NCBI GenBank assembly: GCA_047601445.1
Contig: JASGJH010000001.1
Coordinates: 8,512,001-8,576,000, forward strand
From: Myxococcales bacterium
GTDB taxonomy: Bacteria > Myxococcota_A > Polyangia > Polyangiales > DASUME01
Length of the DNA: 64,000 nucleotides
Direction of reading: 5' to 3'
Shown here: in pieces, positions 5,171 through 33,459 of the stretch
Layout of the letters: each line of letters starts with the position of its first letter
Numbering within the stretch: position 1 is the first letter of the stretch
Position numbers and translations under genes: made by a program
The notes under the pieces: model-generated
Told to the model about the DNA's origin: nothing
Seen by the model: only the letters and a program-made list of their open reading frames with translations
The model's database searches: none

Positions 5171-5509
5171 ATGCGTGTTCGGAAGCACAACAAGTACACC
5201 GATGAGTTCAAGGCAGAGACGATCGCGCTGATGAAGCGGGACGACCGCAGTTTTGCCCAGTTGTCCGTGGATTTAGGCATCAGCAGCTGGACCTTGCGGG
5301 AGTGGTACAACAGAGACGAGATGGCCAAGAAGAGCAAGCGGAAGCCGGGGGTACCGGTCGCTCCGGTACCTGCTGCTGAAACGGCAGAGGAGAAGGCGGC
5401 CCGGCTGGAGCGGGAGAACGAGCGGTTACGCAAGAAGGTGGAGTCGCTCGAAATGGACCGCGAAATCCTAAAAAAAGCGGCAGCCTTCTTCGCGAAGGAA
5501 AGCGAATGA
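5171..5509 (+). CDS. IS3 transposase OrfA (HTH)
   Basis: KYTDEFKAETI...LGISSWTLREW...EILKKAAAFFAKE; A7G slippery site at 5470-5477 for a -1 frameshift. Confidence 0.95.
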   Translation: MRVRKHNKYTDEFKAETIALMKRDDRSFAQLSVDLGISSWTLREWYNRDEMAKKSKRKPGVPVAPVPAAETAEEKAARLERENERLRKKVESLEMDREILKKAAAFFAKESE

Positions 5510-6381
5510 GGTTCGCCTTCATCCACGCGGAGAAGGCGAACTTCCCGGTGTCAGCGCTGTGCCGGAACCTGCAGGTGACCCGGCAGGGGTACTACGCGTT
5601 CGCGAGTCGCCCGCCGAGTCCCCGTGCGGACCAGGACCGGGCCCTCTTGGAACGGGTCGGCCAGGTGCACGCGGAGAGCCGCAACGCCTACGGAAGTCCG
5701 CGAGTTCGAAAGGAACTCCGACGTCGTGGCATTCGGGTCGGCAAACGCCGGGTGGAGCGCGCCATGCGGAGCTTGGGGCTCTGCGCCCGGCCTCGTCGCC
5801 GGTTCCGTGTGACCACCGCTGCAAATCCGCGGCATCCAGTCGAGCCTAACGTGCTCAACCGCGAGTTCCGCGCCGAACGTCCCAATCAGCGCTGGGTGAC
5901 GGACATCTCGTACGTCTGGACCGACGAGGGCTGGTGCTACCTCGCTGTCATCATCGACCTGTTTTCCAGGACCGTCGTGGGCTGGGCTCTGGACGCCATG
6001 CTCTCGACCCAGCTGCCCCTCGCAGCGCTGGACATGGCGCTTCGGCGCCGTCGTCCCGACGCAGCAGGCCTGCTCCACCACTCTGACCGGGGCTGCCAGT
6101 ACACGAGTCAGGAATACCGCTCATCGCTCGCCCAGCACGGGCTCTCGGTCAGCATGAGCCGCAAGGGCAACTGCTGGGATAACGCGGTCGCGGAGAGCTT
6201 CTTTTCGACCATCAAGGCCGAGCTAATTCACGGCCGACGTTGGGCCGGACGCCTTGAGCTCCGGTCCGCAGTCTTCGAGTACATCGAGGTCTTCTACAAT
6301 CGGCGGAGGCTACATTCGTCACTGGGGTATCGGACCCCAGCCGAGTTCGAGAACGATTACACTGCGGCTCAGGCCGCCTAA
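5506..6381 (+). CDS. IS3 transposase OrfB (DDE/rve)
   Basis: WVTDISY, HHSDRGCQY, GNCWDNAVAESFF, YNRRRLHSSLGY; ATGA overlap with orfA. Confidence 0.95.
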   Translation: MRFAFIHAEKANFPVSALCRNLQVTRQGYYAFASRPPSPRADQDRALLERVGQVHAESRNAYGSPRVRKELRRRGIRVGKRRVERAMRSLGLCARPRRRFRVTTAANPRHPVEPNVLNREFRAERPNQRWVTDISYVWTDEGWCYLAVIIDLFSRTVVGWALDAMLSTQLPLAALDMALRRRRPDAAGLLHHSDRGCQYTSQEYRSSLAQHGLSVSMSRKGNCWDNAVAESFFSTIKAELIHGRRWAGRLELRSAVFEYIEVFYNRRRLHSSLGYRTPAEFENDYTAAQAA

Positions 6382-6604: not shown

Positions 6605-6648
6605 GTCGGGGTTGCCGGATTCGAACCAGCGACATCTAGCTCCCAAAG
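6605..6648 (-). repeat. att site: 44-bp copy of the 3' part of tRNA-Pro
   Basis: 43/44 identical to 21118-21161; on the minus strand it ends ...CCCCGACCA (to 6603). Confidence 0.92.
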
Positions 6649-6780
6649 AACAGCTCGGCTGTCATGGCCTGTCTTGCTCTGTCTTGGTTTTTGCGCCAAA
6701 AACACCGGCGTTTTGAACGTTTTGGCCTCTTTGGGGCCTAGCGTGTCCAGGCTGGCTTTGGCATCCTTGGTCGACGATTT

Positions 6781-6811
6781 GTGGCAGCAAATGTAGCAGC
6801 AAGGTGGCAGC
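6781..6811 (+). repeat. tandem GTRGCAGCA repeats, probable integrase arm-type sites (left)
   Basis: GTGGCAGCAAAT-GTAGCAGCAAG-GTGGCAGC; the same motif recurs at 21031-21051 near the other att site. Confidence 0.65.
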
Positions 6812-6851
6812 GCTTTGTTGCCGCGGGTCGCGGACGGCTGAGGGTAGGTAA

Positions 6852-8282
6852 GTGGCAGCGAGCAAGAAGCGTCGTGGTCGAAAGCATCCGGGCGTGACGA
6901 TCATGAAGCCCAATCCAGCGCGACGGATTGGCTGGCGCCTCCGCTACAAGGACCCTGACTCAGGCAAAATGCGGTACGAAAGTCTCGACTCGGACGTCAC
7001 CACGGAGGATCGACGAGTCGACGCAGCTGTGCAGCGCTCGCGCGAGATTGGAGCGCGCGCTCTTGAAATCGATCGGGGCGCCGACCCACTGCACGGCAGT
7101 GATTTGGTTCAGGCCATTGCGGCGTACCATAAGGCCGCGGAGGTTGAGCTACGGGACAAGACCGTCGCGTTGTACAAGCGCGCGACGGACATGTTCCTGG
7201 AGTGGGCTAGGGCCCACGGCATCAAATCGACGAGGGATCTCAAGGCCGCCCGACTGCCCGGGTTCCGGGACTACTTGCTCGCGCAGCGAAAAAAGGCGTA
7301 CGTGCGAGGCGGCAAGCGTGGACAGCGTAAGGCGGGGAACGAGAAGCTCTCGCCGCAGACGATCAACTGGCAGCTGCGCGCCGTCAAGACCGCGCTCAAC
7401 CATCTTCGCTCACGAGGGATGGTGCCGCTCACGAGCGACGACATCGCCGATCGCCTAAAACCGGTGGAGGTCCCACAGGACGATCCGGAGTTCTTGCGTC
7501 CGCAGGAGTGCGTAGCTCTGCTCGAAGCCGCCCTGCGGCACGATGCTGAGACGTTCGCCGAGACTCGATCGGAGCACCGAGGTATCGGCACAGCGGGAAC
7601 GACGCCAAAATACGATCCGATTGCGCCACTCGTGGCCACCGTGCTCTTGGGGGGCTTTCGCATCGGCGAAGCGCTGGCTGTGCGATGGAGCGCCGTGGAT
7701 CTCGCTGTACTCGACAGCGAGGGTAAGCCCAAAGGCGAGATCCGCTTGAAGGCGAGCGAGACCAAGACGAAACGCGCACGCACCGTCGAACTGGGTGTGT
7801 CGCCATCGCTGCGTATTCTCCTCGCCACGATGAAGCTGAGGGCCGGGGATGCGCAGTTTGTGTTCGGCGGCGATGGGCCGATGCCCCGTTCGTCCGCGGA
7901 GGCTGCGCGGCGGCGCCTCGTCGGTGAAGTGCCCAAGAAGGCACGCAAGATCGAACCAAAGAAAAATCGCAAGCAAACGCCAGCGGTCGATTTTGGCGCA
8001 CCGCGCAACTTCACATGGCAGGCGCTTCGCTCGACTTGTGCCACCTACCAGTGCAATGCGCCCTCCATCTTTGGAGACGCGGCTGCGTTTAGAAGCGCTA
8101 AACGCTTGGGGCACTCAATCACCGTGAGCGAGAAGCTATACGCGAATCAGTTCTCGGTATCGCATGCTGCAAGGACGTTGGAGCAGGCCATGGGGATCGA
8201 GGCCATCATGGCTCGAGTCATCGAATCCGCGAGCGGCTACCGCGTGCCCGCGCCGCCTCTGCGAGCTGTGGCAGCAGAGTGA
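6852..8282 (+). CDS. int: tyrosine recombinase/integrase
   Basis: GFRIGEALAVRW (R), KTKRAR (K), QALRST (x-x-x-R), LGHS...KLYA (H, Y); N-terminal arm-binding-like WRLRYKDPDSGK. Confidence 0.9.
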   Translation: MAASKKRRGRKHPGVTIMKPNPARRIGWRLRYKDPDSGKMRYESLDSDVTTEDRRVDAAVQRSREIGARALEIDRGADPLHGSDLVQAIAAYHKAAEVELRDKTVALYKRATDMFLEWARAHGIKSTRDLKAARLPGFRDYLLAQRKKAYVRGGKRGQRKAGNEKLSPQTINWQLRAVKTALNHLRSRGMVPLTSDDIADRLKPVEVPQDDPEFLRPQECVALLEAALRHDAETFAETRSEHRGIGTAGTTPKYDPIAPLVATVLLGGFRIGEALAVRWSAVDLAVLDSEGKPKGEIRLKASETKTKRARTVELGVSPSLRILLATMKLRAGDAQFVFGGDGPMPRSSAEAARRRLVGEVPKKARKIEPKKNRKQTPAVDFGAPRNFTWQALRSTCATYQCNAPSIFGDAAAFRSAKRLGHSITVSEKLYANQFSVSHAARTLEQAMGIEAIMARVIESASGYRVPAPPLRAVAAE

Positions 8283-9097
8283 GGATTCGCGTGCAGCGGC
8301 GAACAGCTATGGCAAGCAGGGAAAGCGTGTCAGCAAACAAGACGCAACCGAAGCTGGCTGCAGCTCAGAGTCGAGAGCAGAGCCGACCTCCGATGTCCGC
8401 CGAGACGCTCGGGTTGGCAAAGCAAAGACATCGCGAGCTTAAACGCGAATCCGACACGCTTGCGGTCAGACTGGTCGAGATCGTCGAACACTGCGCGGTG
8501 CTTTCTGACGCATGCGGCGCTTTGGCTGCCGAGATCGCCAGGGCCGAACCCGGGTCCGAGGAAAAGCAGGTTTGGGAGCGCATTGCCCAGAGCGACAAGG
8601 CAGCGAGTAAACCTGAGTTCACAAAGGCAGCGCGCGCGCTCGTCGGAGTCATTTCGAAGGCCTTGGTCACGCAGCGCAGCGACGACGTTTTCGTGCTTGC
8701 GGAGCGCTTGGACTCGCGACGGAAGCGGGAGTGGCTCATACGGTGTGCGGCCATTCGGAGATTGCACGCAGTCGGAATGATGAGCATGGGCGAGCAGGGC
8801 CTCGTTGACCTGCTCGCAGACGTCGATGATCACGCGCGGTCTCTTGCCGTCGACGCCATCGCAGAGGCGCTCCAAGACAAGCGTCAGACAAAGCGCAACG
8901 ACCAAAAGGAAGCGAGCCCGGATGCTCGCTTGGCCGCGTCTGTCGGCGTGCTTCGATTCGCCGCGCGCCTCGCGGCCATGTGCGGCGCTCTTGGTTATGG
9001 AATGCGCGCGTATCGGGGCAAGGAGGAGGAGACTGCTTACGAGGCTTTCAAGATGCTGGTCAGGGAGGACCCGGAGCTCGGGTCCCAGCTCTCGTAA
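8279..9097 (+). CDS. hypothetical helical protein in the element core
   Basis: GTGA overlap with the int stop (alternative ATG at 8309); no family recognised. Confidence 0.6.
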   Translation: MRIRVQRRTAMASRESVSANKTQPKLAAAQSREQSRPPMSAETLGLAKQRHRELKRESDTLAVRLVEIVEHCAVLSDACGALAAEIARAEPGSEEKQVWERIAQSDKAASKPEFTKAARALVGVISKALVTQRSDDVFVLAERLDSRRKREWLIRCAAIRRLHAVGMMSMGEQGLVDLLADVDDHARSLAVDAIAEALQDKRQTKRNDQKEASPDARLAASVGVLRFAARLAAMCGALGYGMRAYRGKEEETAYEAFKMLVREDPELGSQLS

Positions 9098-9299
9098 CCA
9101 CTGATTACGATCAGGCGAGCAACTGGGGAGGTGGTGTCCCCAAGACCCCAGGGGGCACGTTCGACGAAGGTGCCTTCCCATGAGAGTCCAAACGAACGAG
9201 CTGCTCGCCGTTGCCGCAACCGGCAAGCACGCTCTCAATCCGAATAAAACCTGCGGACACACCTGCCTCGACAGCGCTTCGAGCGTAACCAGCGAGGCT

Positions 9300-9578
9300 A
9301 TGAACCTGGGAGCAGTCGCGCTTCTCTCAGAACTGATTCGCGCCAGCGTGCGCGAAGAACTCGAGTCAGCTCGCATCGCGTTTGCTCCGCCGCCGGCGGC
9401 TGCCTTGTCTTCGCACGTCGATGTCAAAGAGGCCCGCGTACTCCTGCGCTGCAGCGACAAGACCGTGCGCCGCATGGTGGATCGCGGTCTGCTCAAGAAG
9501 GCCAAGTTGGGGCTCGGGGAGGGCTCAAAGCTGCTGATTTCTCGCGAATCAATCGATCAAGTTCTGGGGGGTGTGTGA
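9300..9578 (+). CDS. excisionase/AlpA-type helix-turn-helix protein
   Basis: VDVKEARVLLRCSDKTVRRMVDRGLL...LISRESID, a MerR-like/HTH_17 pattern; overlaps the primase start; longer start at 9180 possible. Confidence 0.8.
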   Translation: MNLGAVALLSELIRASVREELESARIAFAPPPAAALSSHVDVKEARVLLRCSDKTVRRMVDRGLLKKAKLGLGEGSKLLISRESIDQVLGGV

Positions 9579-11938
9579 TGGGTACGAGTGAAGTTCTCTA
9601 CAGCGAGTCGTCCTTGGCCGAGGCGGCGAAATGGTACGCCCACCAGCAGCTCTTCGTGTTGCCGTGCGCGCCGAAGCAGAAGGTTCCGGCGATCAAAGGC
9701 GGGCGTGGTAGTCGCGATGCGAGCAATGATCCGGCCTTCCTCGAATCCATCTGGAATGAGAATCCAGCGTTCAACATCGGCATCGCCACGGGGAGCCGCT
9801 CCCAGGTGGACGTGCTCGATGTGGACGGCGAGTCTGGCGAAGCAGCGCTTGCCGCTCTCGAAGCGGAGCACGGGCCTCTGCCGGTAACCCCGACTGTCCG
9901 CACAGGGAAGGGGCGCCACTTCTACTTCAAGGCCGTGGACGGCTTGCGGAATAGCCAACGGAAGCTCGGGCCTGGTCTCGACATCCGTTCTGAGGGCGGG
10001 CACGTGGTCGCTCCCCCGAGCATTCATCCCAGCGGGGCGCGCTACGAGTGGGTTGAAGGGCGTCGACCTGATCAGGTGCGCCCGGCTCCTATGCCGCAGT
10101 GGATCATCGATCTCCTGCGCTCGACGAGTATTTTGCAAGTGTCGTCCTTAAGTGTCGCGGCGAGCACGACCACCCCGTACGCGCATAAGGCGCTGGAAGA
10201 TGAATGCAGCGCAGTAGCCAACACTCCCAAGGGGAATCGGAATGGGCGCCTTAACCAGGCAGCGTTCGCACTCGGGCAGCTGATTGGTGCGGGCGCTCTC
10301 GACGAAAACGAGGCGCGCGCCGAACTGACCGTTGCCGCCTCCGCATGCGGACTCCCCGCAGGCGAGGCACGCCGCACGATCGACAGCGGCCTTGAAAGCG
10401 GAAAAACGCAACCGCGCATCATCCCGGACGCGAGCGCGCGCGTGTCGGAGAATCGCTTTCATGTCTCGTCCGAGTGGAGCGAGGCCGCTGAACTTCCGGG
10501 GCTGCTGCCCGTGCCGAAGTGGGACGAGCGTCTGCTGCCCGAGGTGCTGCGCCCGTGGCTGTGTGACGTTGTCGAGCGCACTCAGTGTCCCCCGGAGTAC
10601 CCAGCAGTCGGAGCAATGGTTGCTCTTTCTTCGACCGTAGGACGCGGGTGTGCGATCAGGCCCAAGTGCCAGGACGATTGGACTGTCGTGCCGAACCTTT
10701 GGGGCGCGTTGGTAGGGCCTCCGAGTGCGATGAAAACGCCGGCGCTTCGGGAGGCGCTGCGCCCGTTGAATGCGCTGGCCGCCGCGTCTTCGGAGGCTTA
10801 TGCGGAACATGCTTTCGACCGCGAGCAGATCGCCTCGCAGCGAGCTGCTCTGAAGGCGCAGATGGACAAACTTGCAAAGGCCGGCCATGACTTGGCAGAG
10901 CTGCGGCCGGAATACGAGATGCTGAATCAGCGTGAAGCCCAGCTGAAGGGCGAACGCCGCTACATCGTTCACGATGCGACGATCGAAAAGCTGGGGGAGT
11001 TGCTGCAGGCCTGCCCGCGTGGCGTCCTGCAGTTCCGCGACGAGCTTGCCGGCTGGTTCGCCTCCTTGGATCGTCCGGGGCACGAGAGCGATCGAGCGTT
11101 CTTTCTTGAAGCGTGGAACGGCAATGATGGCTTCACCTATGACCGCGTGGGTAGGGGAACGGTGCGCATCGAGGCCGCCTGTGTGTCCGTCTTGGGGGGT
11201 ATCCAGCCGGGGCCGCTTGGCCGGCATCTTCGCGCGGCGGAGTCCGGCGGTGTTGGGGCTGATGGCCTAATGCAGCGCTTCCAGCTCCTCGTCTATCCGG
11301 ATCAGTCGCGCGATTGGCGGAACGTGGACCGCTGGCCAAACTCGGTGGCCCGCGATCGAGCGCATGCCCTGTACAAGCGCCTTGCCCACGCCACTGCCCA
11401 GGAAATGGGCGCAGATCAGGACGCGGACATCCCGTTCGTGCGGTTCGACGATGAAGGCCAAGAGTTCTTCGATCATTGGCGGTACACGCTTGAGAAGCGC
11501 CTTCGCGCCGGCGAGGAGTCGGATGCAATGGAGGGGCACCTCGCCAAGTATCGTTCGCTGCATCCCAGTCTCGCGCTGCTTTTCCAACTTGCTGACCACG
11601 GGCGTGGCCCAGTGGGGCTCGTGGCCGCTCAGCGCGCGGCGTCGTGGTGCGCACTTCTTGAGGCGCATGCTCGCCGCGTGTACGGATCGACGTCGGCGGG
11701 GCCCGTCGCTGCGGCGCGCGTCATCCTCACGAAGCTTCGCGCGCGCAAGCTGCCAAACCCTTTCACGAAGCGCGACATCTGTCGTCCCGAATGGGCCGGG
11801 CTGAGCGACTCAGCCGTCGTCGAGGCCGGCCTACACGTACTCGAGCAACACGGCTGGTTGCGCACGTTGTCCGTGCCCACGGGAGGTAGGCCGCGGGAGG
11901 AGATTCACATTCACCCCTCGCTGCTCGGGGGCCGCTGA
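9575..11938 (+). CDS. bifunctional primase-polymerase (Prim-Pol) fused to a DUF3987 (YfjI-like) P-loop helicase domain
   Basis: NIGIATG, VLDVDG, RTGKGRHFYF, VVAPPSIHPSG (Prim-Pol); RNGRLNQAAF (PriCT-like); VGPPSAMKT, QFRDELAGW, GGIQP, DGLMQRF (DUF3987). Confidence 0.9.
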   Translation: MMGTSEVLYSESSLAEAAKWYAHQQLFVLPCAPKQKVPAIKGGRGSRDASNDPAFLESIWNENPAFNIGIATGSRSQVDVLDVDGESGEAALAALEAEHGPLPVTPTVRTGKGRHFYFKAVDGLRNSQRKLGPGLDIRSEGGHVVAPPSIHPSGARYEWVEGRRPDQVRPAPMPQWIIDLLRSTSILQVSSLSVAASTTTPYAHKALEDECSAVANTPKGNRNGRLNQAAFALGQLIGAGALDENEARAELTVAASACGLPAGEARRTIDSGLESGKTQPRIIPDASARVSENRFHVSSEWSEAAELPGLLPVPKWDERLLPEVLRPWLCDVVERTQCPPEYPAVGAMVALSSTVGRGCAIRPKCQDDWTVVPNLWGALVGPPSAMKTPALREALRPLNALAAASSEAYAEHAFDREQIASQRAALKAQMDKLAKAGHDLAELRPEYEMLNQREAQLKGERRYIVHDATIEKLGELLQACPRGVLQFRDELAGWFASLDRPGHESDRAFFLEAWNGNDGFTYDRVGRGTVRIEAACVSVLGGIQPGPLGRHLRAAESGGVGADGLMQRFQLLVYPDQSRDWRNVDRWPNSVARDRAHALYKRLAHATAQEMGADQDADIPFVRFDDEGQEFFDHWRYTLEKRLRAGEESDAMEGHLAKYRSLHPSLALLFQLADHGRGPVGLVAAQRAASWCALLEAHARRVYGSTSAGPVAAARVILTKLRARKLPNPFTKRDICRPEWAGLSDSAVVEAGLHVLEQHGWLRTLSVPTGGRPREEIHIHPSLLGGR

Positions 11939-12483
11939 TGTCTGCCTACCTGGAAGAGGGCTTCCTCTCGACACTCGATCAAGGCGCACGGCCCAAGCGC
12001 GCTGGGGGGCCACTGTCAGAACTGCCAAAAGTCCACACGCTCGGGCTCACGGAGCGCGAGTCACCTTCTGTCAGTTTTGGCAGTGCCCCTCGTGCCCTCG
12101 TGCAGGAGCCAGCTGTCCGGGAGGTGCTTGGCTTTCCGGCGAGGTGGCTTGCTGGCCTGCCCATTCCCGCTGTCCTCGTACTTGTGCATCGGGAAGACTC
12201 CAACGACGTATTCGTGGACTTCCGCGATGAACCTAGGGAGCTGTCCTTCGACGCCGAGGAGTGGAGCGCCATGGTTAGCGCGGCTGAGTACGGTCGCGCG
12301 AGTCCGCGGGACGCGGACCGCTGGCTGGATCGCAAGCGAGTGCACTCGTGGTTCCGGGTTACGGAACTCGAGGCGCTAGGGGGGCGGATTCGAGGCGAAC
12401 GCTTGCGGCTTACCGTTGGCGCAGTGCTGCTCGAGTATGGGCTTCACCTTCGCGAGGTCATCGCCGACAGCGCGTTTCGGTAA
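11938..12483 (+). CDS. hypothetical protein coupled to the primase; contains a candidate origin repeat
   Basis: TGATG overlap with the primase stop. Confidence 0.6.
   Translation: MSAYLEEGFLSTLDQGARPKRAGGPLSELPKVHTLGLTERESPSVSFGSAPRALVQEPAVREVLGFPARWLAGLPIPAVLVLVHREDSNDVFVDFRDEPRELSFDAEEWSAMVSAAEYGRASPRDADRWLDRKRVHSWFRVTELEALGGRIRGERLRLTVGAVLLEYGLHLREVIADSAFR
12011..12085. repeat. inverted pair of 9-mer doublets, candidate replication origin
   Basis: CACTGTCAGAACTGCCAAAA (12011-12030) vs the reverse complement of 12066-12085, CACTGCCAAAACTGACAGAA: 16/20 match; unit ACTGHCARA x4. Confidence 0.5.
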
Positions 12484-12730
12484 CGCGAGGCCGTCCCGTT
12501 AGTCGGAGCCGTCTGGCTGGCGGGGCTGCGAGACGCGGGCCGAACGCTTTTCGGGCGATATCCGGCTGCTCGGTGCCCACCCCCCGGCGGAAAGGTACTT
12601 CTCGGGCGGGGCGTGGTTTGCGGGTGAAATGCGCCCGTCGGTGTGAAGGTCAGCAACGGATTAAGAAAATAGAAACCGGACTCAAGGCAACCGCCAAAGT
12701 TGCCTCTGTTCGTCGATAAGGCAGGGGCGA

Positions 12731-14091
12731 TCACTTGTCCTGAGGGCCATTTTTTCCGAAGAACACGTGAATGTCGTGCTGCGGGTGAGCCAGACGATTG
12801 CTCGCTCCCCTTCTCACAAGAACTCTGTTGTCTGCATCGAAGTAGGGAGGCTCGGTTCCCGGGGCTACCTTGATCACGACGAGATGAGTGCCTTTGTACA
12901 GGATCGGAGTTGTGCTGAAGTCTGGAGCTTTCGCCGATAGACGAAGTCTGATGGCGTCACGAATCGCGGCGCAGTAGATCGTCAGGCCCCATTCTCCGCG
13001 TCAATGGACTTCTCTTTAGCCCACTTGCGAAACCATCCCTCGGACACGATGTCCCGGCATTGAATGTAGTCGCTTACGCCCAGGAGGATTGTTCCGCCGT
13101 CCGTGTTCGCGAACGCCACCACGGCTTCCACGATCTCCCGAAGCTTTTCGGAGTGGCCCGGCGCAACCGCGGGCTTGAACTCGACCATTCGATTCTCGCC
13201 CGACTCGAGGCACTGTTCTACGAGTTGTTGAAGTTCCGGAATCACCGCTCGCTTGATCGTCACGACCCGATTCGAGTCTCGGCCTTTAGCTGCATACCAA
13301 TGATCCACGGTGGTGCCTGCCTCGTCGACCAGCGCGATCTCATGATTCCGACCCTCCAAAGGGATCCGCGTCCACGGGATTGCCGGCTCGCTGAACGCCC
13401 GCCACTGGTCTCCAACGTAGGAGCCGCCCTTCACCCTCCAACCCTGGCCTTCCTCGGCGCTGATAATGGTTTCGATCTCGGCCGAACGCCGGCCCCACTG
13501 GATTGCACCAATCTGCCCGCGAAGGTCGGGAATGAAGAGAACGAAGCCGCCGGTTCTGGAATCGTTTGCTCCGCCGTAGGATGGGAACCGGCACCACGAC
13601 TTTGCGGCCACATAGATGTTTGGAAAATAGTCGTGCATCTCGCCGCGGCCCGTGACGTGCTCGTGGACGTTGGGAATGTCATGAGCTGCGCGTCCCTCGC
13701 ACCAGATCGCGACTCCCGGCCAACGAGAGAGGCCATTTTCTGAAGGGCACCGGAGCGTCGTGAACGTTGGATCGGGCTTCGGCTCGAATCCCGCGACTGG
13801 AAAACTCGTCAGGCCGCGCGCAATGGCTGCCTCGAGCACGTCCACATCCATCTCTGACTCCTCAAGGACGAGGCCGTTCTGGTACTCGAGTCGGCCACGG
13901 AGGACGGTTTGCTCATCCACGGACTGTCCGATAACTGTGGTCAGAACATTCCGTGCGATTCCTTGAAGGTTCACGTAGGCGGCTTTGACGATGAACCGAG
14001 CGATGCGTCCTCGATTTGTCTTGAGTGCGGAGCTCGCGATCTGGCGGGTGTCCTCCGGTGACTGGTTGCTCCGCAGATAAATGCCGTCCAT
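12731..14091 (-). CDS. Schlafen/AlbA_2 domain protein with unknown N-terminal region (frameshift near 12985-13015)
   Basis: GENRMVEFK...VAFANTDGGTILLGVSD; the domain continues in another frame (HLVVIKVAPGTEPPYF...VLVRRGASNR) to a stop at 12731. Confidence 0.85.
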
Positions 14092-14343
14092 GTGAAAACG
14101 TTAGGCGATCTCAGCCGGGTTTCAAAGCCATGCAAGGGAAGCCATCGCGGGGCGCCAACTAGCCACGGCGTCCTGTCGTAGAGCCGGCGCGGCAAGGTGA
14201 CAGGACTGCGAAGCGTCCGTTGGCATCAGGAGCTCGGAGGCGCGAGCTACGGAGTTGCAGGCCCATACGTGATCGATGTGGGCGCTTGTAGGGGCAGGCG
14301 GTTCGACGCGGCAAAGCGCAGGCGAGGGCGTAGAATCCCGTGC

Positions 14344-15752
14344 ATGGATTCAGGTCTAGCCCAGCGCCGAATGGCACTCTTGAAATCATTCATCGCGGAA
14401 GCCGAGAGATACTCAAGATATGGGCACGCCTCTTCGGGTGGCACCATCGACGATTTGGCGTCCATGGCGAACGAAAGCGCTGCCGCTAGGTCTGCGCTCA
14501 ATCGCATGGTGGTGGCCACAAAGGAGGCTACACAAGCTGCAGGCCTATCGTGCCTGATCACCGTCAGGCCGCCACGGGGGCGTTCGGGGCTAATCCATGA
14601 TGATGTGGACGTCTTCGAGCAACTGTTCACTGGCCCGTATGACGTGGATCTGGTCTCAACCGCTGCCGAACTCGCAGAGAAGGCGCTCGGCGTATATCAG
14701 CATCACGCGGAAGGTTTGCTTCAACTTGGAGCCGAGCAAGTCGAGACTGAGCAAGGGCATCGCAAGTACACGATTTTCATCAGCAGCACCTACGAGGACT
14801 TGAAGGAGCAGCGCGATCTTGTAGCGAAGGCCATTCTTGAGATGGGTCACATTCCGGTAGGAATGGAGATGTTCAGCGCTGCAGACGAAGAGCAATGGAA
14901 AATCATCCAGCGTGCGATCGACGATAGCGACTATTACGTAGTTGTCCTCGCGCATCGCTATGGTTCGCTCACCGGCGAGATTAGCTACACGGAGAAGGAG
15001 TACGACTACGCGGCGGAGCGAGGCATCCCGTGCTTAGGGTTTATTCTCCGGGATGACGCGCCGTGGCCGCACAATCATCGCGATCCCGAGTCAGCAAAGG
15101 TGGAGGCGCTCAAATCGTTCAAAAAGAAGGTTGAGCGAAAACCCGTGGGGTACTGGAAGAGCCAGGACGAGCTTCATGGCAAGGTGGCTGTCGCGCTAAT
15201 GAAAGCGTTCAACGCCCAACGTCGTCCAGGTTGGTGCGGGGACCCGGGACAACCGACCCGAACATGGTTGCGGAGTTCGCCAGGTTGAGTAGGGAGAACG
15301 AGGCGCTTCGCAAGGAACTTGAAGTGGCGCGCGCAGAACAGGAGACAGATCGAAAGCATGCGCGTCTTTGTGAAATCCTTGCCAGCAACAGAGTTGCGTT
15401 TCTGGTAGGTTGGGACGATATTCCCGAGCGGCAGGTTCAGGCAACTCTCCTGGATGTCTTTGGTTGGTTGGCTCCGAACCTCGTTGATCCGATGACGACT
15501 GAGTGGGCGTCTCGGATTGTCGCCTCCTCCGCCTTACGCGAATCAGCCCATCGAGAGATCCGCGCCACAGGAGACTCGCACACCATTTTCGTGCAGGCGT
15601 TTACCGACTTCATGGCGTACGGACTAGTGAGTGCGAAGCCAAATGGCGTCGGGAATACCAAGTGGACAATCACTGCGAGCGGACTCGACTTCCAATCGTT
15701 CCTGCGCCGGAGGCGAATGGAGTCCCAGGTTCGTGAGGGATTGCCTGTGTAG
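14344..15752 (+). CDS. DUF4062 (TIR-like) domain protein (frameshift near 15235)
   Basis: IFISSTYEDLKEQR...GHIPVGMEMF...DYYVVVLAHRYGS...SYTEKEYDYA; adding one G gives RPGWVRG, then a coiled coil and the C-terminal ORF 15231-15752. Confidence 0.85.
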
Positions 15753-15826
15753 AGCAGAAACTTGCTCCGTTTGTGTTGAGATCTCATGGGCCGTTAGTTG
15801 GCCCCCGGGTGGCCGGTGCGGGGATG

Positions 15827-16756
15827 CTAACCCCGAATCGGCAGCAGGCTCCCACCGACCTCAACACCGTCATACCCGAATGATTGGAGCAGTCCATGCA
15901 GAGCGTGGCCGGCGACGTCCCGATTCGCGGTTGGACCGTGAAGGACGCCAGAGATCGGGAGCGTTGCACGCGGGGTCCCGCTCGGTAGCGGGCGGCCGTA
16001 TTCGATGTACGGCGTCAAGCCGTACCTTCCAACCCTATACTTCGCGCCATTCCAGGGCCCGCTCTCTCCGCAAACCAACCGCCACTCTTGCTCGGCCTTA
16101 AAGGCGGGATGCTTGAAAGCGAGGAGTAGTCGCAGAAGAGGTTGATGAATGTATACGCGCAGCGCCTTATCCGATTTGTCGACATCGCCATCATCGGGGA
16201 AGTGGGTCTCCGCATACTTGACGACGATCCCTAGTAGTTCATCAAGCAGTGCCCGTTGCTCATCTTCCTCGTATACGACCCGGATTAGAGAGAAGTGGTG
16301 ACGTGGCCGTGCTTCCTCTTGCCCTTGGAGAAGTTCTCCGGTGTTGAAGCGAAGGGAGTAGCCATCGTTGGGCGCATACACTCGCCACTGATTGAGCAGA
16401 TTTCCGTCCTCACAAAAACACGCCACGTAGAATGCAAACTGGGTCGTCACCCATTGTCCCTTGAATGGCTCCAACAGTCGGCGCGCGGCTGCGTTGTGAG
16501 TTCCTTTCAAGCAATCATCGATTGCCTGGTCGAGGACAAGGAGCGGATAAAGCGATTCGGACGAGTCGTTGAGGTACAGTGAGTTAGTTGCCCAGAGGCA
16601 ACCGTGCTCGAGTATCCCGATAAGTCCGCGTACGTCGGTATAGTGGTAGAGGTATTTGGGGGGCGTCGAGTGCAGTTGCTCCGCTTTCGCCCTTTGGAGC
16701 TCGCTCGGAAATGCCTCTATGATTTCTAGACGCTGCTGAGCGTTGCGGAAAGCCAT
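15827..16756 (-). CDS. DUF2971 domain protein
   Basis: LYHYTD...LWATNSLYLNDSSE, YVACFCEDGNLLNQWRVYA, FKHPAFKAEQEWR. Confidence 0.85.
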   Translation of the reverse strand: MAFRNAQQRLEIIEAFPSELQRAKAEQLHSTPPKYLYHYTDVRGLIGILEHGCLWATNSLYLNDSSESLYPLLVLDQAIDDCLKGTHNAAARRLLEPFKGQWVTTQFAFYVACFCEDGNLLNQWRVYAPNDGYSLRFNTGELLQGQEEARPRHHFSLIRVVYEEDEQRALLDELLGIVVKYAETHFPDDGDVDKSDKALRVYIHQPLLRLLLAFKHPAFKAEQEWRLVCGESGPWNGAKYRVGRYGLTPYIEYGRPLPSGTPRATLPISGVLHGPTANRDVAGHALHGLLQSFGYDGVEVGGSLLPIRG

Positions 16757-17041
16757 GACGAGTAGGCTCTCATGAGCCCGACAGCGGTACCAGTCCTTCC
16801 TCTTGGGGCTCGCAAAGGTTCCGTCAGCATGGGCGCGCACGCTCGCCGATCCGGTTTCGGCCGGCCACGGCGGGCTACCGCAGTTCAGCGGCCGGCGCGC
16901 CGGCACCTGCCAGGAAGCTTGACAAGGGCCCGGGAACGCCCCCCGGGCGGTACAGAGGCTTTCGAGCTCCACTATGTTGCGGTAGAATCGGGACACTCGG
17001 CCGCGCCTACTCTCCGTAGAGCGCTGTGGCGCATCGGACTT

Positions 17042-19082
17042 ATGTATCTAAGAACTCTCACACTGAAGAACTTTCGTTCCTGCGCAGAAACAACCGTCAA
17101 GCTCGATAGCGTGCTTACTGTGTTGGCAGGCGAAAACAACGCCGGTAAGAGCAATATCCTCGATGCGCTTAGGCTGGTGTCGGCGCCGTCCGATACCCGC
17201 CGAGGGCGCAGTTTTGACGTCGACGACCTGCGAATGGGCGCTGGAAGACTTCAGCTAAGCGCCGAGTTTGCCGAGCTCGACGCGGCCCAACGTGGCCTGT
17301 TTTTTACCGCATTAAAGAGCAACAACTCGGACGAGGCGCTCTATCACCTATCGTGGGAGCCACCTCTCGGCCGTTCAAGGCGTCGGTGGGCGTCGTGGAC
17401 GACGGGCGCTTCAGGCGCTCCGGAACAGGAGCCCGATGTTCGGGATCTTATTCGGCACGTCCATCTCCCCGCGCTTCGCGATGCCGATCGAGACTTGGCC
17501 TCGAGTAGCCCAGGTCGGATTCGAGTTCCTGTTGCGTCAACTGCTTGCCGGCAACGACGAAGAAAAGGAAAAGCTACTTCGAAGCGTGCGCTCAGCATCG
17601 ACGACACTGCTTAAGGAGCGCCCACTTCATGCTGCGCGAGAGCGCGTAAGCGAGGTGTTTCGTCCTCTGTCCGCAGGGTTTCACGCGCACGACGCTCATC
17701 TACGATTTGCCGACGCCTCGCTCGTAGGCCTTGCTCGCGACCTGCGGTTCTCTCTGTCGCATGAGGGGTTGGACCCCGATCGTGTTCTTCAGACGGGGCT
17801 CGGCTATTCAAACTTGTTGTATTTGGCGACTGTTCTCGTAGAGCTGGATGCCGCACGCGACGCCGAGCTGACCTTGCTACTGGTTGAGGAGCCGGAGGCA
17901 CACCTGCATCCGCAGCTGCAACGCGCGACGCTGGCCTTTCTAGAGGGAAAGGCGAAGGAGTCTGCGAACAGAAAGTCTGTGCCAGGAGAGCATGCCGGCC
18001 GCATTCAGGTTGTCGTTTCGACCCACTCACCAAATCTAACGGCCGCCACTTCGATCGAGCGGCTGGTCATAATGCGAGCAACTCGGACACGGCCTTCGGT
18101 CCCGGCACGACCTGGCGAGGTTAGGGAACTACCCCCGGTGGGCCGCGCGCCCGTGGAGGGTAACATCGCCGAGTCTATTCCTGGTGACCAAAACTCCGTC
18201 GCACCTGGCACAGGTTCCGAGGCACAGCACAGCATCTCGGCCCCGACTGAATCTTTCGCAGTGGCGATCCGAGACCTCGAGCTGCCAAAGCAGGATTTGC
18301 GCAAGATCGATCGCTATCTTGATGTTACTAAGTCGACTTTGTTGTTCGGGCGCAAAGTGCTGCTGGTGGAAGGCATCGCAGAGGCTCTGCTGATCCCGGT
18401 GCTGGCCGAGTTGGTTCTCACACCCGCGGAGATGGCGAGCTTTCGTGCAGTCTCCGTGGTCGCCATCGACGGGGTGGACTTTGAACCGTACGTGCGGCTG
18501 CTCCTGACGGCACCAAAAGGTACAGCGAACTCGATCGCGGACCGCGTGGTGGTTGTTACGGACGAGGATCCTTCCGCCTCCACGCAGGCGAGCAAATCCG
18601 CGCAGCAAACTGAGGCGGAGCCAGATGAGGGGGCCAATGCAGCGGCTGGGCCACCCGTTGCAAAGAAAACCAAAGGCGCGCGAGCAGCAGGACACACACG
18701 GAAGCAAGGGCTCGAGAAACTTGCTGCGGAGCACGGAGCGACTGAGCGTCTACACGTTGAGCTTACCCCGCTAACGTTTGAGGCCTCCTTATTATCCAGC
18801 ACCCCGACGGCCGCCGCCGCTGGCGAGTTCGTGAAACTAGCATTCGCATCTTGCGATGGAGGGGAGCAGCGTGACAAGGCGTGGGCCACGCGGATAGACG
18901 CGTTTCCGATCGAGGAGCGGGGTAAGCGATTCGTCGAGTGGCTAAAGTCAACCGGCACGCGAAAGGGAGACTTCGCCCAGGCCCTGGCGCAGGTCATCGA
19001 GCAGAAGCGAGCAACCGAAGCGAACTCGCGCTTTCCAGTTCCAGAGCACCTCGTTCGCGCTTTGCGGGTGCTGGTCGGATGA
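17042..19082 (+). CDS. gajA: Gabija GajA-like OLD-family ABC ATPase-TOPRIM nuclease (frameshift near 17520)
   Basis: MYLRTLTLKNFRS, GENNAGKSN, LLLVEEPEAHLHPQLQ, STHSP, LLVEGIAE, VTDED; removing one T at 17520-21 joins the two ORFs. Confidence 0.85.
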
Positions 19083-20842
19083 CGAAATCGAGCAAGCCAA
19101 CGAACGAGCAGCTTTCAGTTGTCGGGGCTGGTGGGCATCTCCTGGTGCGTGCTTGCCCCGGGGCTGGAAAAACCAGGACCATGGTCGCCTTGGGGGAGCG
19201 GGCTGCTGCAACGGGAGGAGCTCGCTCCGGAGTAGCGTTTCTGTCGTTTACGAATGCTGCAGTTGACGAACTGAACCAGCGTCTTTGTGACACTGCAACG
19301 AATAGGGGGATGACGCGCGCACCGCACTACACGGGGACGTTCGACGCGTTCCTGATCAAGTATGTGCTTGGACCTGATGGGCACTCGCATGCGCCAGGTA
19401 TTCGGGTGCAGTTTCGAGACCACTGGGGAGGGCACCCTATCCGTTTCAAGGCAGGAAAGACGACAATGAGCGTTCCGCTCGATGTCTTTCTTCCAAACGG
19501 TCGCACAGTACGGCTCGACAAGAACCGAGCTCCTCACGGAGCCTATGCGCTACGCGCGTTCTTAGAGCGGCTTGATCAGCAGGAACGCGAGCGCCTGTGC
19601 GAGATTGGGAATCAGGAAGTACGGCGGCGCCTCAAGGCTGGTATCCTGACCTCTCCGTTTCTGCGCTCGGAGGCAAGGAAGCGGCTCGGTCGCGATCGTG
19701 CCAATGCGCATTTGGCCGCGCGCTTTCACACGGTAATAGTTGACGAGGCCCAGGACTGTGACGCAGTTGACCTGGAAATCTTGGACGCGCTCAAAACGGC
19801 TGGCTGCCGTTGCGTCGTGGTTGCCGACCCCGAGCAGGCAATCTTTCGGTGGCGTGATGCGGATCCAGCGCGCCTCTCGCTCCTAGGCTTTCCAGAGATG
19901 AGACTGACTGGCAACTTCCGGTCGAGCGACACGATTTGCCGAGCCGCTGCCACACTGCGAAGCGTCGAGAGTGAACCAGATACCGCCCTGGGACCTGCTG
20001 CCATGGTTCAGAATCCAGTCATTGTGGTGCCCTTCAGCACGGATGATCTCGATTCGGGTAAGGTTTTGGCTGAGTTTACTCAGGCACTCGAGCGAGCCGG
20101 CATAGATACCAAGAGTGCTGCGATTGTTGCTCATCGCGAGGCGCATGCTGGCCGCGTACTTGGAATACGCGACGACATAAGAGCATCAGAATCGTTTGCA
20201 GCTGTGCTGGCGCGGGGTAGTTCTTCGAGTGCCAGCTCGGCAGACCGAACAGCGGCTGTCCAACGACTGCAGGAAACCCTGGCGAGCGCGTTTGATCCGG
20301 CAGCTCGGCAAGATCCGAATCTGAAAGGGTGGATTCATCACACAGCCCGACAGGTGATGGGAGAGCTTGCGGGCCAACACATTTCCTTGTCTGGGGTGTG
20401 TAAGAGTACGAGGAAGATCCTGGCAGGGATCAGTGCGCCGCCGGGTCAGTCGTTTATCAAGGAGCCTGCGAAGTGCTTCACCGCGAAAGGCCGTGGCGCT
20501 GTCACTCCATCTAGCAACTCACCGGGTCCCCTGATGCGGTACTCAACTGTGCATGCCGTTAAGGGGCGAGAATACGACGCAGTCCTCGTGGTGGTTGGCG
20601 ACACAAGTTATTTGGATGAGCTCGTTGACGCATGGCGCGCACGCGACCCGGCCCACGAGGGGCGCGCGGTTCTCTATGTTGCAGCTACTCGCGCGCGCCG
20701 ACTGTTGGTGTTCGCTGTTCCCGCGCGCGTCTGCGACGCGGTTGCGGAACTGCTGAGGCGCCAAGGAGCGCCTGTTCAAGTCGCCTCGGGAGCTCGGGAG
20801 ACCGAGTTCGTGCTGCGTTGGAGCGCGTTGGAAACGGCCTGA
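19079..20842 (+). CDS. gajB: Gabija GajB-like UvrD helicase
   Basis: ACPGAGKT, VIVDEAQD, DPEQAIF, NFRS, TVHAVKGREY, LYVAATRAR; ATGA overlap with gajA. Confidence 0.85.
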   Translation: MTKSSKPTNEQLSVVGAGGHLLVRACPGAGKTRTMVALGERAAATGGARSGVAFLSFTNAAVDELNQRLCDTATNRGMTRAPHYTGTFDAFLIKYVLGPDGHSHAPGIRVQFRDHWGGHPIRFKAGKTTMSVPLDVFLPNGRTVRLDKNRAPHGAYALRAFLERLDQQERERLCEIGNQEVRRRLKAGILTSPFLRSEARKRLGRDRANAHLAARFHTVIVDEAQDCDAVDLEILDALKTAGCRCVVVADPEQAIFRWRDADPARLSLLGFPEMRLTGNFRSSDTICRAAATLRSVESEPDTALGPAAMVQNPVIVVPFSTDDLDSGKVLAEFTQALERAGIDTKSAAIVAHREAHAGRVLGIRDDIRASESFAAVLARGSSSSASSADRTAAVQRLQETLASAFDPAARQDPNLKGWIHHTARQVMGELAGQHISLSGVCKSTRKILAGISAPPGQSFIKEPAKCFTAKGRGAVTPSSNSPGPLMRYSTVHAVKGREYDAVLVVVGDTSYLDELVDAWRARDPAHEGRAVLYVAATRARRLLVFAVPARVCDAVAELLRRQGAPVQVASGARETEFVLRWSALETA

Positions 20843-21030
20843 CGCCCTGGTTGGGTGCAACGAGGGAGGCTGGCGCAATGAAGGTAAAGCAAACGAACGA
20901 CCCCCTCCGCGTAGAGGTTGACCGCGTTTGCATAGCCGGTTTTCGGGAAGGGGGCCGTCCTGGCCGCGCGCGGGTGCGATCGCTGTCGCTTCGACCGGTT
21001 GCGGCACCACGGCGCGGGACGGCGCAAGTG

Positions 21031-21051
21031 GTAGCAGCAAATGTAGCAGCA
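21031..21051 (+). repeat. GTAGCAGCA repeats, probable arm-type sites (right)
   Basis: GTAGCAGCAAAT-GTAGCAGCA; shares an exact 18-mer with 6784-6801. Confidence 0.65.
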
Positions 21052-21118
21052 GACCCTTTAACGCACCGAAGGGCTGAACGGTGCCCGCCCAACCCTTCGG
21101 AAACACTCTGTCTTTTAG

Positions 21119-21192
21119 TCGGGGTGGCCGGATTCGAACCAGCGACATCTAGCTCCCAAAGCTAGCGCACTACCAGGCTGTGCTACACCCCG
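21119..21192 (-). tRNA. tRNA-Pro (anticodon TGG)
   Basis: CGGGGTG/CACCCCG acceptor stem, CTAGC-TTTGGGA-GCTAG anticodon arm, GGTTCGAATCC T-loop; followed by CTA rather than CCA. Confidence 0.96.
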
Positions 21193-21201
21193 AGGCCGCG
21201 C

Positions 21202-21230
21202 AAGCTAGCGCAACTCAAGGCAAAACTCAA
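21202..21230 (-). promoter_or_regulatory. sigma70-like promoter of tRNA-Pro
   Basis: Minus strand TTGAGT-17 bp-TAGCTT followed by a GC-rich discriminator just before the tRNA. Confidence 0.55.
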
Positions 21231-21457
21231 GGGCACGCCCAAACGAGCGAAACGCTCGGAAAAGGGCCTCCTTTCAGGCCCAACCCGGGCGCTGTCCCCG
21301 CCCCCTCACAGCATCGCGACCCGACGCTGCACGCGGTCCGCAATTCCGCTGCTCCGGCCCCGCCACGTCCAGGCATGTCCTGACCTCCGGCGCCGAACCA
21401 AGTGCCGTCCGGAATCGCTGCTTCCGATTGCTTGCGTGCTCGCCCAAGCGTTCGTCG

Positions 21458-21712
21458 ATGTCGAGGGCCACGGTGCTCGAGGCTCGCTTGGCTGACTGGT
21501 CGATCTCCGTCGTTCAGCTCGATGCGGGCGGACACACGGGCCTGCTGAGTGTTCATCACGGGGCGTGTCCCGAGGGCACTCGGCCTTGGCCCCAAGCGCA
21601 CTCCTTCTCCACCTTACTGAAGCGCCTCTTCGATGAGCGCAATGGCGATGTCGAGCTCGTCGACGTCGTTTGTTACACGGCGAGGATGCTGCCGCCGTAC
21701 ATCTACAACTAG
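21458..21712 (+). CDS. small hypothetical protein
   Basis: ORF only. Confidence 0.3.
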   Translation: MSRATVLEARLADWSISVVQLDAGGHTGLLSVHHGACPEGTRPWPQAHSFSTLLKRLFDERNGDVELVDVVCYTARMLPPYIYN

Positions 21713-21850
21713 GCTCTCTTGCTCTATCAAGTTGGCGGAGATTGGTGCGCGCGCAACGGCACTTGCTCCCCCAATTGGGATGACTGATCTCACCCCTTTC
21801 GAGGTAGGGGCCTCCTTGACAGACTTTCGTGGTAATCGCATGACTGCGAA

Positions 21851-22469
21851 ATGCCGCCGTCTGCTCCAACACGTGCTTACGATGGGACTACCCGGCGGGC
21901 CCGAGCAGAGGATCTTACCGGGCACATTCTCGACGTCGTCTTGAAAGTGATCGAGGGCCTCGACGCGCCCGATGTCACGCTCGAGGCCGCCGCGAAGGCC
22001 GCTGACGTGGGCGTTCAATCGCTGGTCCGTCGGTTCCGCACCAAGGATGGCCTGTACGCCGCCGCGTTTGCTCGCGCGCGCAGCCAGTACCGTCCTTCGC
22101 GAGAGCAACAGCCCAAGGGCTCCGACACATTCGACTTCATCGTGAAAAGTCAGCTCGACATCTACGAGCGCTGGGGCAAGGCGCTCCTTTATCTTCGGAC
22201 CCAGGAGAACGACCGCCCGGTGCTGCATCGGGAGCTCGAGAATCGGTCGCCGGGAGCGCCGCGCGTGGCTCGAGAAGTTGCTCGCCGAGCGGCTGCCTGA
22301 TGCGCAGCGCGGTGAGGACGCTCTAGCCAAAATCTTCGCGCTCACCGACGTCCACCTGTGGGCCGTGTTTCGCCTCGATATGAAAATGACGCGGCGTCGA
22401 ACGGAGCTCGCCATGGCCGACCTCCTGCGCGGCTACGTCACCAACTTAAGTAAAGGAAATCCGCGATGA
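21851..22469 (+). CDS. TetR-family regulator (frameshift near 22241)
   Basis: HTH VTLEAAAKAADVGVQSLVRRFRTKDGL; removing one A restores LEIGRRERRAWLEKLL and joins ORF 22278-22469. Confidence 0.85.
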
Positions 22470-23212
22470 AGCCCGATGAGATTCTCACGATCAAAGGAGT
22501 CCGAGGCACGCTTCCGTTCGAGGTCTTCAAGCCGCGCGGAGCGGGTCCCTGGCCGGCCGTCTTGATCATCCACGAGCTCATCGGGCTCAATGACGATATT
22601 CGCGGTATCGCGCGGCGCTTCGCCGACAACGGCTATTTGGCGGGTTGTCCCGACTTGATGGCTGATGGCGGGCGCATCAAGTGCGTGCGGTCCGCGCTCG
22701 AGTCGCTGCGCAAGGGCGCTGGGCCCACGGTCGACCAGCTCACCACCGGCATCGAGATGCTGCGGGCGCGTCGCGACACGAGCGACGTGGGAGTCGCGGG
22801 ATTCTGCATGGGTGGCGGCTTTGCGACGTTGCTCGCCACGCGACAGAAGCTTGGAGCAGCAGCTGTTTTTTACGGTGACATCCGCCCCAGCGAAGAGCTC
22901 AAGAACGCATGCCCCATCGTCGGTGGTTACGGCGGCAAGGACAAGGCCTACCGGAGCAAGGGCGAGAAGCTCAAGCAGCGCCTCACGCAGTACGGCATTC
23001 CAAACGACATCGCGATCTACCCGGACGCCGTTCATTCCTACATGAATCGTGGCGTTTCGCCGTTGATGGCCGCACTCATTCGCCCCGTCCTCACGGTGGC
23101 TTACAACGAAGCGGCCGCAGAAGACTCGTGGTCGAGAATGCTCGGCTTCTTCGGAGAGCACCTGCGTAAGGAGCGCGAAGCGATTTCCGTGGGAGAACAT
23201 CAGACTTCTTAG
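22466..23212 (+). CDS. dienelactone hydrolase family protein
   Basis: IIHELIGLN, GFCMGG nucleophile elbow, YPDAVHSY; ATGA overlap with tetR. Confidence 0.9.
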   Translation: MKPDEILTIKGVRGTLPFEVFKPRGAGPWPAVLIIHELIGLNDDIRGIARRFADNGYLAGCPDLMADGGRIKCVRSALESLRKGAGPTVDQLTTGIEMLRARRDTSDVGVAGFCMGGGFATLLATRQKLGAAAVFYGDIRPSEELKNACPIVGGYGGKDKAYRSKGEKLKQRLTQYGIPNDIAIYPDAVHSYMNRGVSPLMAALIRPVLTVAYNEAAAEDSWSRMLGFFGEHLRKEREAISVGEHQTS

Positions 23213-23408
23213 TCGTATGAGTAAATGGAGATCGGATGGCCAGAAGTCTGCTGACCTGCTGGCGACGGTCTTGTTTTGTCCTGCGTGCGCTCGCAGCTTC
23301 GCCGTGGCTAGCGTCAACTGGGCAAAATACACTTGGAATCACCCCCAATTTGCATTGCGCCGAGTCACGGTTGATGTGAGTGTTGTCACCTCTTGGTGAG
23401 GGAGTTCT

Positions 23409-24539: not shown

Positions 24540-24551
24540 TAGGAGGTTTCG

Positions 24552-27677: not shown

Positions 27678-27719
27678 GTAAGGGTCGAAGACCCGTTCGT
27701 AAGGGTCGAAGACCCGTTC
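27678..27719. repeat. 21-bp perfect tandem duplication, each unit with a GGGTC-GAA-GACCC palindrome
   Basis: GTAAGGGTCGAAGACCCGTTC x2 directly after the RND stop. Confidence 0.85.
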
Positions 27720-27743
27720 CCCCGCATCGTTCGTTTCGTGTCT

Positions 27744-32471: not shown

Positions 32472-32473
32472 TC

Positions 32474-33442: not shown

Positions 33443-33459
33443 TCCGGGAAGGAGATCGC

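Follow-up and report, generated by a model that had tools for sequence, protein, structure and literature searches.

How does an island that carries an integrase and replication genes, and no virion gene that can be recognized, move from one myxobacterium to the next? The question is raised by a 14,557-bp element lying in a tRNA gene (6605-21161) within a 64,000-nucleotide stretch of a Myxococcales genome, here called the window (assembly GCA_047601445.1, contig JASGJH010000001.1, positions 8,512,001 to 8,576,000). Coordinates are window positions unless prefixed by a genome or locus label, G000 being the 9.5-Mb host genome, which is placed in the Polyangiales (Myxococcota), as the initial annotation of this DNA had surmised in naming a probable myxobacterium. 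On balance, we favor an integrative element that likely behaves as a minimal phage satellite in the style of the PICMIs (phage-inducible chromosomal minimalist islands) and carries anti-phage cargo. Passage in virus particles is likely because packaging or tail genes are frequent in islands whose integrases are related; this copy lacks such genes, and the satellite reading is supported for the integrase family and unproven for the island copy. The gene plan is known; what is new is the host lineage, the integrase family and the family's range of packaging modules.

The initial annotation proposed attachment (att) repeats of 44 bp at tRNA-Pro, a one-directional core (integrase, orphan, excisionase-like helix-turn-helix (HTH) protein, Prim-Pol/DUF3987, orphan), some 8 kb with four candidate defense modules, and no capsid, terminase, tail, relaxase or type IV secretion system (T4SS) genes, all of which the present analysis bears out. 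The two direct repeats are 43/44 identical, the right copy being the 3' part of tRNA-Pro(TGG). The core genes (~5.6 kb) all lie on the plus strand and abut or overlap; the cargo (12734-20842, five genes) matches Gabija, DUF4062, DUF2971 and Schlafen/AlbA_2 by profile or PDB comparison. The GC content is 63.5% in the core and 59.4% in the cargo, and 66.3% genome-wide. Scans of the element's open reading frames (ORFs) against Pfam, PHROG and NCBIfam give no match to capsid, terminase, portal, tail, relaxase or T4SS proteins. Just inside both ends lies a 21-nt repeat (6781-6801 and 21031-21051) with an 18-nt core found only at these two places in the host genome. The end repeats are probably the arm sites of the integrase, because tandem repeats with the same 12-bp period lie inside both ends of many att-bounded relatives. 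The 18-mer also matched 32 viral contigs, all of low GC and none with an element gene, and these matches were set aside as chance. A sigma-70 promoter scan of the element found no site, and predicted terminators were no better than chance level.

On sequence grounds the element appears equipped to move: catalytic residues, both att cores, both arm arrays and the replication genes are intact. The integrase (Int) falls below the PF00589 cut-off of 27.1 bits, and for that reason satellite finders that work with profiles would probably overlook this copy; R270, K305, R393, H421 and Y430 nevertheless do not vary among 59 aligned homologues. The primase-helicase fusion retains its DxD, H, Walker A and B motifs. 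The orphan that follows int, orf2, has no close homologue and six remote ones. A profile built from the six identifies a homologue at locus L179 (E 3.6e-42) that occupies the same GTGA-overlap slot at the int stop in an island ordered att-int-orf2-xis-PrimPol-D5; another, in genome G053, stands next to a different integrase and xis and has a fragment of a capsid gene upstream. The predicted Orf2 model is confident and all-helical (pLDDT, the predicted local distance difference test, 81), and fold searches with it returned generic helical-hairpin matches and no specific fold (best Z 9.0, root-mean-square deviation 3.6, 68 residues aligned). Ten weak matches of the orf2 profile in family f17 appear to reflect low-complexity sequence and were left aside. 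An ORF overlaps the int stop in 30 of 129 cases, a count made without a shuffle control and suggestive only. The model of Orf5 is unusable (pLDDT 32), and both Atlas searches yielded no more than weak leads.

The closest published counterpart is the PICMI. In the available text of its description, this satellite likewise combines an integrase (PF00589), an AlpA/HTH_17 protein (PF12728), a DUF3987 primase (PF13148) and an unknown gene that shares 4 nt with int, has no capsid-remodeling or packaging genes, and carries anti-phage accessory genes (PMC10803314). The three PICMI model genes, together with a 4-nt overlap at int like that of PICMI iolg, support a satellite assignment, and by its position orf2 may be the analogue of iolg. 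A whole PICMI measures ~6.7 kb, against 5.6 kb for the core of the island and 14.6 kb overall. A hallmark of PICMIs is integration at fis, whereas the island sits in tRNA-Pro(TGG) with no fis among the flanking ORFs; PICMIs belong to the Vibrionaceae, whereas the island belongs to an unrelated phylum and has a divergent integrase (PMC10803314). Phage-inducible chromosomal islands (PICIs) and their capsid-forming variants (cf-PICIs) also share with it an integrase, a regulator and a primase-replicase in one direction, a tRNA target and a size of ~15 kb; however, the island has three of the five PICI core components of SatelliteFinder, below types A and B (at least four of five needed), and lacks terS and capsid, in the available text of that scheme (10.1101/2022.09.14.508007). 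cf-PICIs differ further in having their own capsid, terL and head-tail genes, none of which is detected here. P4-like satellites are reportedly defense hotspots, small integrase islands at tRNA/tmRNA genes carrying defense systems; among the ORFs of the present island there is no profile match to Sid, Psu or delta. The island thus has the three PICMI genes and three PICI components, and it falls outside the PICMIs for want of the fis site and outside the PICIs for want of terS and capsid.

Missing packaging genes need not mean that phages do not carry an island. According to the available text of the respective sources, PICMIs are packaged by an unmodified helper phage without packaging genes of their own (PMC10803314), and the Pseudomonas island I55 is phage-packaged though unable to transfer on its own (PMC12595487). 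By analogy, these two cases support the satellite reading. I55 is also a small integrase island at a tRNA/tmRNA gene with defense systems; it is larger than the present island, and the available text mentions no primase (PMC12595487). In the sea, virion-packaged islands are common according to the available text of PMC9618062, and E. coli, in that of PMC10121019, often has integrase-only defense islands, whose mobility is unclear.

What carries the argument beyond this single copy is the integrase family. The protein collection holds 93 further homologues of Int, with matches in 34 of 301 Polyangiales genomes, including six of nine congeners; named records come from Polyangiales, other Myxococcota and Planctomycetota. 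In a FastTree phylogeny of 123 sequences (duplicates and partial sequences omitted, arbitrarily rooted, no clade test), Int falls in a five-member clade with support 1.00, and three of its four partners adjoin a tRNA-Pro(TGG) att site at 98-100% identity. The closest relative with context, L168, shows the same att, int, an orphan overlapping it at ATGA, two HTH genes, Prim-Pol and a D5-like helicase. A CBASS-like pair, a SMODS-type nucleotidyltransferase and SLATT (L167:584-2015), lies close by the tRNA-Pro att of the closest integrase relative, on its outer side.

Att repeats bound 22 relatives of 2.1-15.9 kb, elements above ~17 kb being undetectable at that step owing to the fetch windows. 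A primase or helicase, of interchangeable types, is present in 14 of them, and library-supported packaging or virion genes in seven of the 22. Three further, unbounded relatives were extended, a non-random choice that favored long contigs and long runs of genes on one strand. Among the resulting 25 att-bounded relatives (2-28 kb), ten have terminase, capsid or tail genes, and a full virion set is detected in none of these ten. PICI-like genes (terS, capsid or terL) occur in six: L118 and L219 have terS, L212 has capsid, and L065, L232 and L236 are described below, while L066 has a tape measure and a tail fiber. A TerS-like gene in L047 showed local similarity only and was left out of the count. 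Islands too small to be phages and yet equipped with packaging or virion genes support the satellite reading. Most att-bounded relatives are small islands, so the core is not confined to full prophages or conjugative elements; such confinement is what the initial annotation had named as fatal to its proposal. The satellite proposal finds support in the family, in which packaging modules recur; for the island copy, with no terS or capsid, a site other than fis and no DNA in common with the resident prophage, helper dependence is a supposition.

The packaging modules of these relatives take several forms. A 9.8-kb PICI-like island at tRNA-Asp (L065:1332-11174) carries xis, an MT-A70 methylase, a D5 helicase, terS and a protease-capsid fusion. 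Two islands of 10.6 and 11.2 kb at tRNA-Pro (L232:9812-20400 and L236:9812-20983) combine xis, a helicase and a TerS-like gene with a 443-aa large terminase (terL); portal or capsid genes were not detected in either, an unusual design for a satellite. A 17.4-kb island at tRNA-Val (G575:C86 ~101,850-119,280; L108/L307) has a ClpP-type head protease, head decoration, neck and tape measure genes, with terL, portal and major capsid not detected; partial modules similar to it occur at L215, L174, L092, L050 and L209. The other two extended relatives measure 11.7 kb (a weak head-protein match) and ~28 kb (terS, E 9e-7).

Set against this family evidence, several observations count against a satellite lifestyle for the island copy. 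The relatives with packaging genes have integrases 38-46% identical to Int and fall in other clades, and the contigs of the nearest relatives end before the right half is reached. The island has no detected terS, capsid or Sid/Psu-like gene, and a local profile built from the TerS-like proteins of the integrase family finds no match in it. Its primase-helicase has no close relative in IMG/VR. With the resident prophage it shares no DNA beyond chance (best E 0.18) and no packaging-site-like sequence. Three of the five cargo genes (AlbA_2, DUF4062 and gajA) are split by apparent single-base frameshifts without in-frame stops. Finally, in Prochlorococcus tycheposons, PICI-like and cargo types share integrases and replication genes, and only the PICI-like forms appear in phage fractions, in the available text of 10.1101/2020.12.28.424599.

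Could the island then be a cargo-type replicative element, tycheposon-like or akin to the AgaPP-DUF3987 islands, which excises and replicates after DNA damage and moves by vesicles, transformation or chance transduction with no dedicated helper? We regard this as unlikely, though as the most probable of the alternatives. An island with no packaging gene and 8 kb of cargo fits it, as do the tycheposon fractions just cited and the fact that, where bounded relatives have a replication gene (14 cases), no packaging gene is seen in seven. Myxobacteria, moreover, are abundant vesicle producers. By gene plan, the island resembles the cargo-type tycheposons, which travel in vesicles: both have a tRNA-specific tyrosine integrase, xis, a swappable primase/helicase, 10-20 kb and no virion or conjugation set, and in both one family spans forms with packaging genes and forms with cargo, and tandem att relics build an island. 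They differ in that tycheposons are cyanobacterial with nutrient cargo, whereas the present family is from Myxococcota and Planctomycetota and the island bears defense cargo (same source, in its available text). Bacteroidota islands of the AgaPP/PriCT-DUF3987 kind share the plan of an integrase at one end, a tRNA at the other, an archaeo-eukaryotic primase (AEP) with DUF3987 and variable defense genes, and the available text makes no satellite claim for them; there DUF3987 is a 5'-3' helicase working with the AEP primase, while the present island has Prim-Pol and DUF3987 fused and no long-B prokaryotic Argonaute (PMC11724360). Against a helper-free element stand the recurrence of virion and packaging modules across the integrase family, and PICMI and I55, which show that missing packaging genes are compatible with specific phage packaging. 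Conjugative transfer, as in integrative and conjugative or mobilizable elements (ICE/IMEs), differs from what is found: the ORFs have no relaxase or T4SS match, and VirB4, the single marker searched, has no match in G000, an absence that supports the satellite reading.

The frameshifts bear on another alternative, improbable in our view, in which a former satellite no longer has its packaging module and survives as a defense island in decay, for the most part immobile. Only 3 of 113 conserved genes (134 kb) are broken in the background, so the excess in the cargo is significant (Poisson P 0.0006, rising to 0.012 if the background rate is set at its upper bound); an integrase-less relic island stands in tandem with the element, and cargo-only relics occur in the family (L064, L063 and L070). 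However, the ORFs of int, xis and the primase-helicase are unbroken and retain the catalytic motifs, the att and arm sites are intact as well, and the breaks may be sequencing errors, since clpX (one of the three background cases), the flanking tetR and the terL of the resident prophage are split in the same assembly. Decay and residual assembly error in variable DNA are therefore about equally likely. The clpX split, at G000:C1:1058532-1059774, is a sign of residual indel error. Least credible, and very improbable, is an origin from a full temperate phage that lost its late genes and gained defense genes in their place, with the island as its remnant. Full temperate phages do use the integrase family (nine IMG/VR contigs of 22-98 kb, among them L125 with terL, L126 with baseplate and endolysin genes and L124 with Erf and DnaB), and for this reason the integrase alone does not define lifestyle. 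In these phages, however, xis is convergent to int and accompanied by a recombination and early block, whereas the island has int, the orphan, xis and the primase in tandem, as do many small bounded islands, and no late-gene fragment was detected in it.

If the island is indeed a satellite of the PICMI kind, phage infection might lead the HTH_17 protein, perhaps with the product of the int-overlapping orf2, to turn the integrase to excision, and the Prim-Pol/DUF3987 fusion would replicate the excised circle, whose DNA would be packaged by an unmodified helper phage, as in PICMIs. Between transfers, Gabija, the NAD+-depleting DUF4062 protein, the DUF2971 protein of ADP-ribosyltransferase fold and the Schlafen nuclease would shield the host against phages other than the helper. 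A candidate helper is the resident 35.8-kb prophage at tRNA-Leu(TAG) (G000:C1:8017837-8053637; L273, L274), which has an integrase, terS and a frameshifted terL. Its portal and capsid candidates are not recognized by PHROGs, and it carries TIR/SEFIR-like and SIR2-like genes, judged by eye. More tentatively, at slightly below an even chance, the island may be the minimal member of an undescribed Myxococcota/Planctomycetota satellite family, marked by a divergent integrase that scores poorly on standard profiles and ranging from forms free of packaging genes through terS/capsid forms to 10-17-kb terL/tail forms in which neither portal nor capsid is detected; Orf2 would then be a new protein for excision or for sensing the helper.

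Assigned by sequence match, all four cargo modules (Table 1) come from families with published anti-phage activity. Both Gabija genes are present, gajA (split in this assembly) and gajB being adjacent and matched over nearly their full length by PADLOC profiles. The DUF4062 gene matches the Swarozyc NADase KpSwz (PDB 10WC) at E 6e-31 and keeps the catalytic Glu at the position where the deposited mutant chain has Ala. For its out-of-frame C-terminal ORF, the PDB gives no match even at E 10, and this piece has one marginal match in 151 genomes. In Swarozyc, a C-terminal auxiliary domain is required and activation is by the phage portal, in the available text of 10.64898/2026.05.01.722283 (also 10.64898/2026.09.04.749371). 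The intact DUF2971 protein is likened by family profile to Aristaios, a validated single-gene abortive-infection system of ~316 aa with an ADP-ribosyltransferase fold, against 309 aa here (available text of PMC11381338). The AlbA_2 fusion has no homologue in 201 genomes nor in plasmids. Schlafen/AlbA_2 fusions have reportedly been published as anti-phage nucleases.

Table 1. Features of the island at tRNA-Pro(TGG), in window positions.
Feature	Position	Strand	Remarks
att core, distal copy	6605-6648		3' 44 nt of tRNA-Pro TGG, one mismatch
Left arm-type integrase sites, predicted	6781-6813	+	tandem repeats, 12-bp period
int, divergent tyrosine integrase, 476 aa	6852-8282	+	phrog_1 E 2.8e-22; Pfam 14.9 bits
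orf2, orphan, all-helical	8279-9097	+	overlaps int stop by 4 nt (GTGA); alternative start ATG 8309, 30 nt downstream
xis, HTH_17 excisionase/AlpA-like protein	9180-9578	+	PF12728 36.3 bits (cut-off 27); TIGR01764 24.4 bits, below its cut-off
Prim-Pol (AEP) primase-polymerase fused to DUF3987 helicase, 787 aa	9575-11938	+	Prim-Pol E 5e-42; DUF3987 (PF13148) E 5e-78
orf5, orphan, 181 aa	11938-12483	+	single weak homologue, in related island L074, immediately behind a DUF3631 gene
Unknown N-terminal domain and Schlafen/AlbA_2 fusion	12734-14091	-	frameshift near 12,990 puts profile positions 1-43 and 65-116 in successive frames
DUF4062, Swarozyc/NIR-type TIR-like NADase	14344-15752	+	frameshifted near 15,230, before stalk and C-terminal domain
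DUF2971 protein, 309 aa, intact	15827-16756	-	Pfam 43.9 bits (cut-off 22); family of Aristaios
gajA (OLD ATPase-Toprim)	17042-19082	+	split near 17,520; PADLOC PDLC00073 positions 1-165 and 164-587 in two ORFs
gajB (UvrD-like helicase), intact	19079-20842	+	PADLOC PDLC00112 E 1e-104, 1-578 of 581
Right arm-type integrase sites, predicted	21031-21051	+	copy of left-end repeat
tRNA-Pro(TGG)	21118-21192	-	its 3' 44 nt are the proximal att core, 21118-21161

The integration site itself appears to be a variable defense hotspot across the genus, because mobile and defense content differs among congeners, in line with the variable cargo that the initial annotation had suggested looking for at tRNA-Pro. 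The tRNA gene is assembled in eight of the nine congeners. In G008 the site looks empty, and the genes beyond its tRNA-Pro map elsewhere in G000. The site holds Prim-Pol/D5 in G007, an HTH_17 gene and a 790-aa putative primase in G006, AbiEi/AbiEii in G002, and an att fragment with the start of a 58%-identical integrase in G005. In G004 it holds HTH_17, a Cap4 nuclease and an SMC-like ATPase, the last two of which we take to be Lamassu-like. The contigs of G001 and G009 end too near the tRNA to judge. In another family, tRNA-Pro(TGG) is occupied by a 15.9-kb island (L064:1336-17213) that has a more distant integrase, with type III restriction-modification, UvrD-PDDEXK and no replication module. 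The gene plan also recurs with other integrases in Polyangiales: at tRNA-Arg (L262:5271-10976; G022:C8) an unrelated integrase is followed by an orphan, xis, Prim-Pol, a helicase and an HTH TerS-like gene.

Taken singly, the island follows a familiar plan. Its integrase family makes mobile islands traceable in roughly one of every nine Polyangiales genomes searched, tRNA-Pro(TGG) is a place to mine defense systems, and the relatives with terL only or tail genes only are odd satellite designs that deserve separate study. A literature search whose coverage lacked most subscription journals found no phage satellite from myxobacteria, which is not proof of novelty. A survey of 3,229 myxobacterial genomes reports, in its available text, only prophages, plasmids, insertion sequences, integrons and 10 ICE/IMEs, with satellites appearing only in its references (10.64898/2026.09.14.751636).

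The surroundings of the element hold further variable DNA. A third, degraded att copy, 89% identical and, like the three cargo frameshifts, absent from the initial annotation, lies outside the window at G000 8,510,347, 8.3 kb to the left of the element. Between it and the distal att core extends the relic island without integrase (G000:C1:8510347-8518604, window -1654 to 6604; L001). This contains a nucleoside-deoxyribosyltransferase/TIR-like gene whose Pfam match falls short of the cut-off (762-1796, E 1e-5), an ORF judged HNH-like from its motif by eye (3716-4603) and an IS3-type element (5171-6381). On the 5' side of tRNA-Pro, a second variable block of ~19 kb (21193-40251) separates the tRNA from rph (40252-41010), which stands immediately before it in G005, G008 and G009; the block holds an RND efflux pair and the split tetR.

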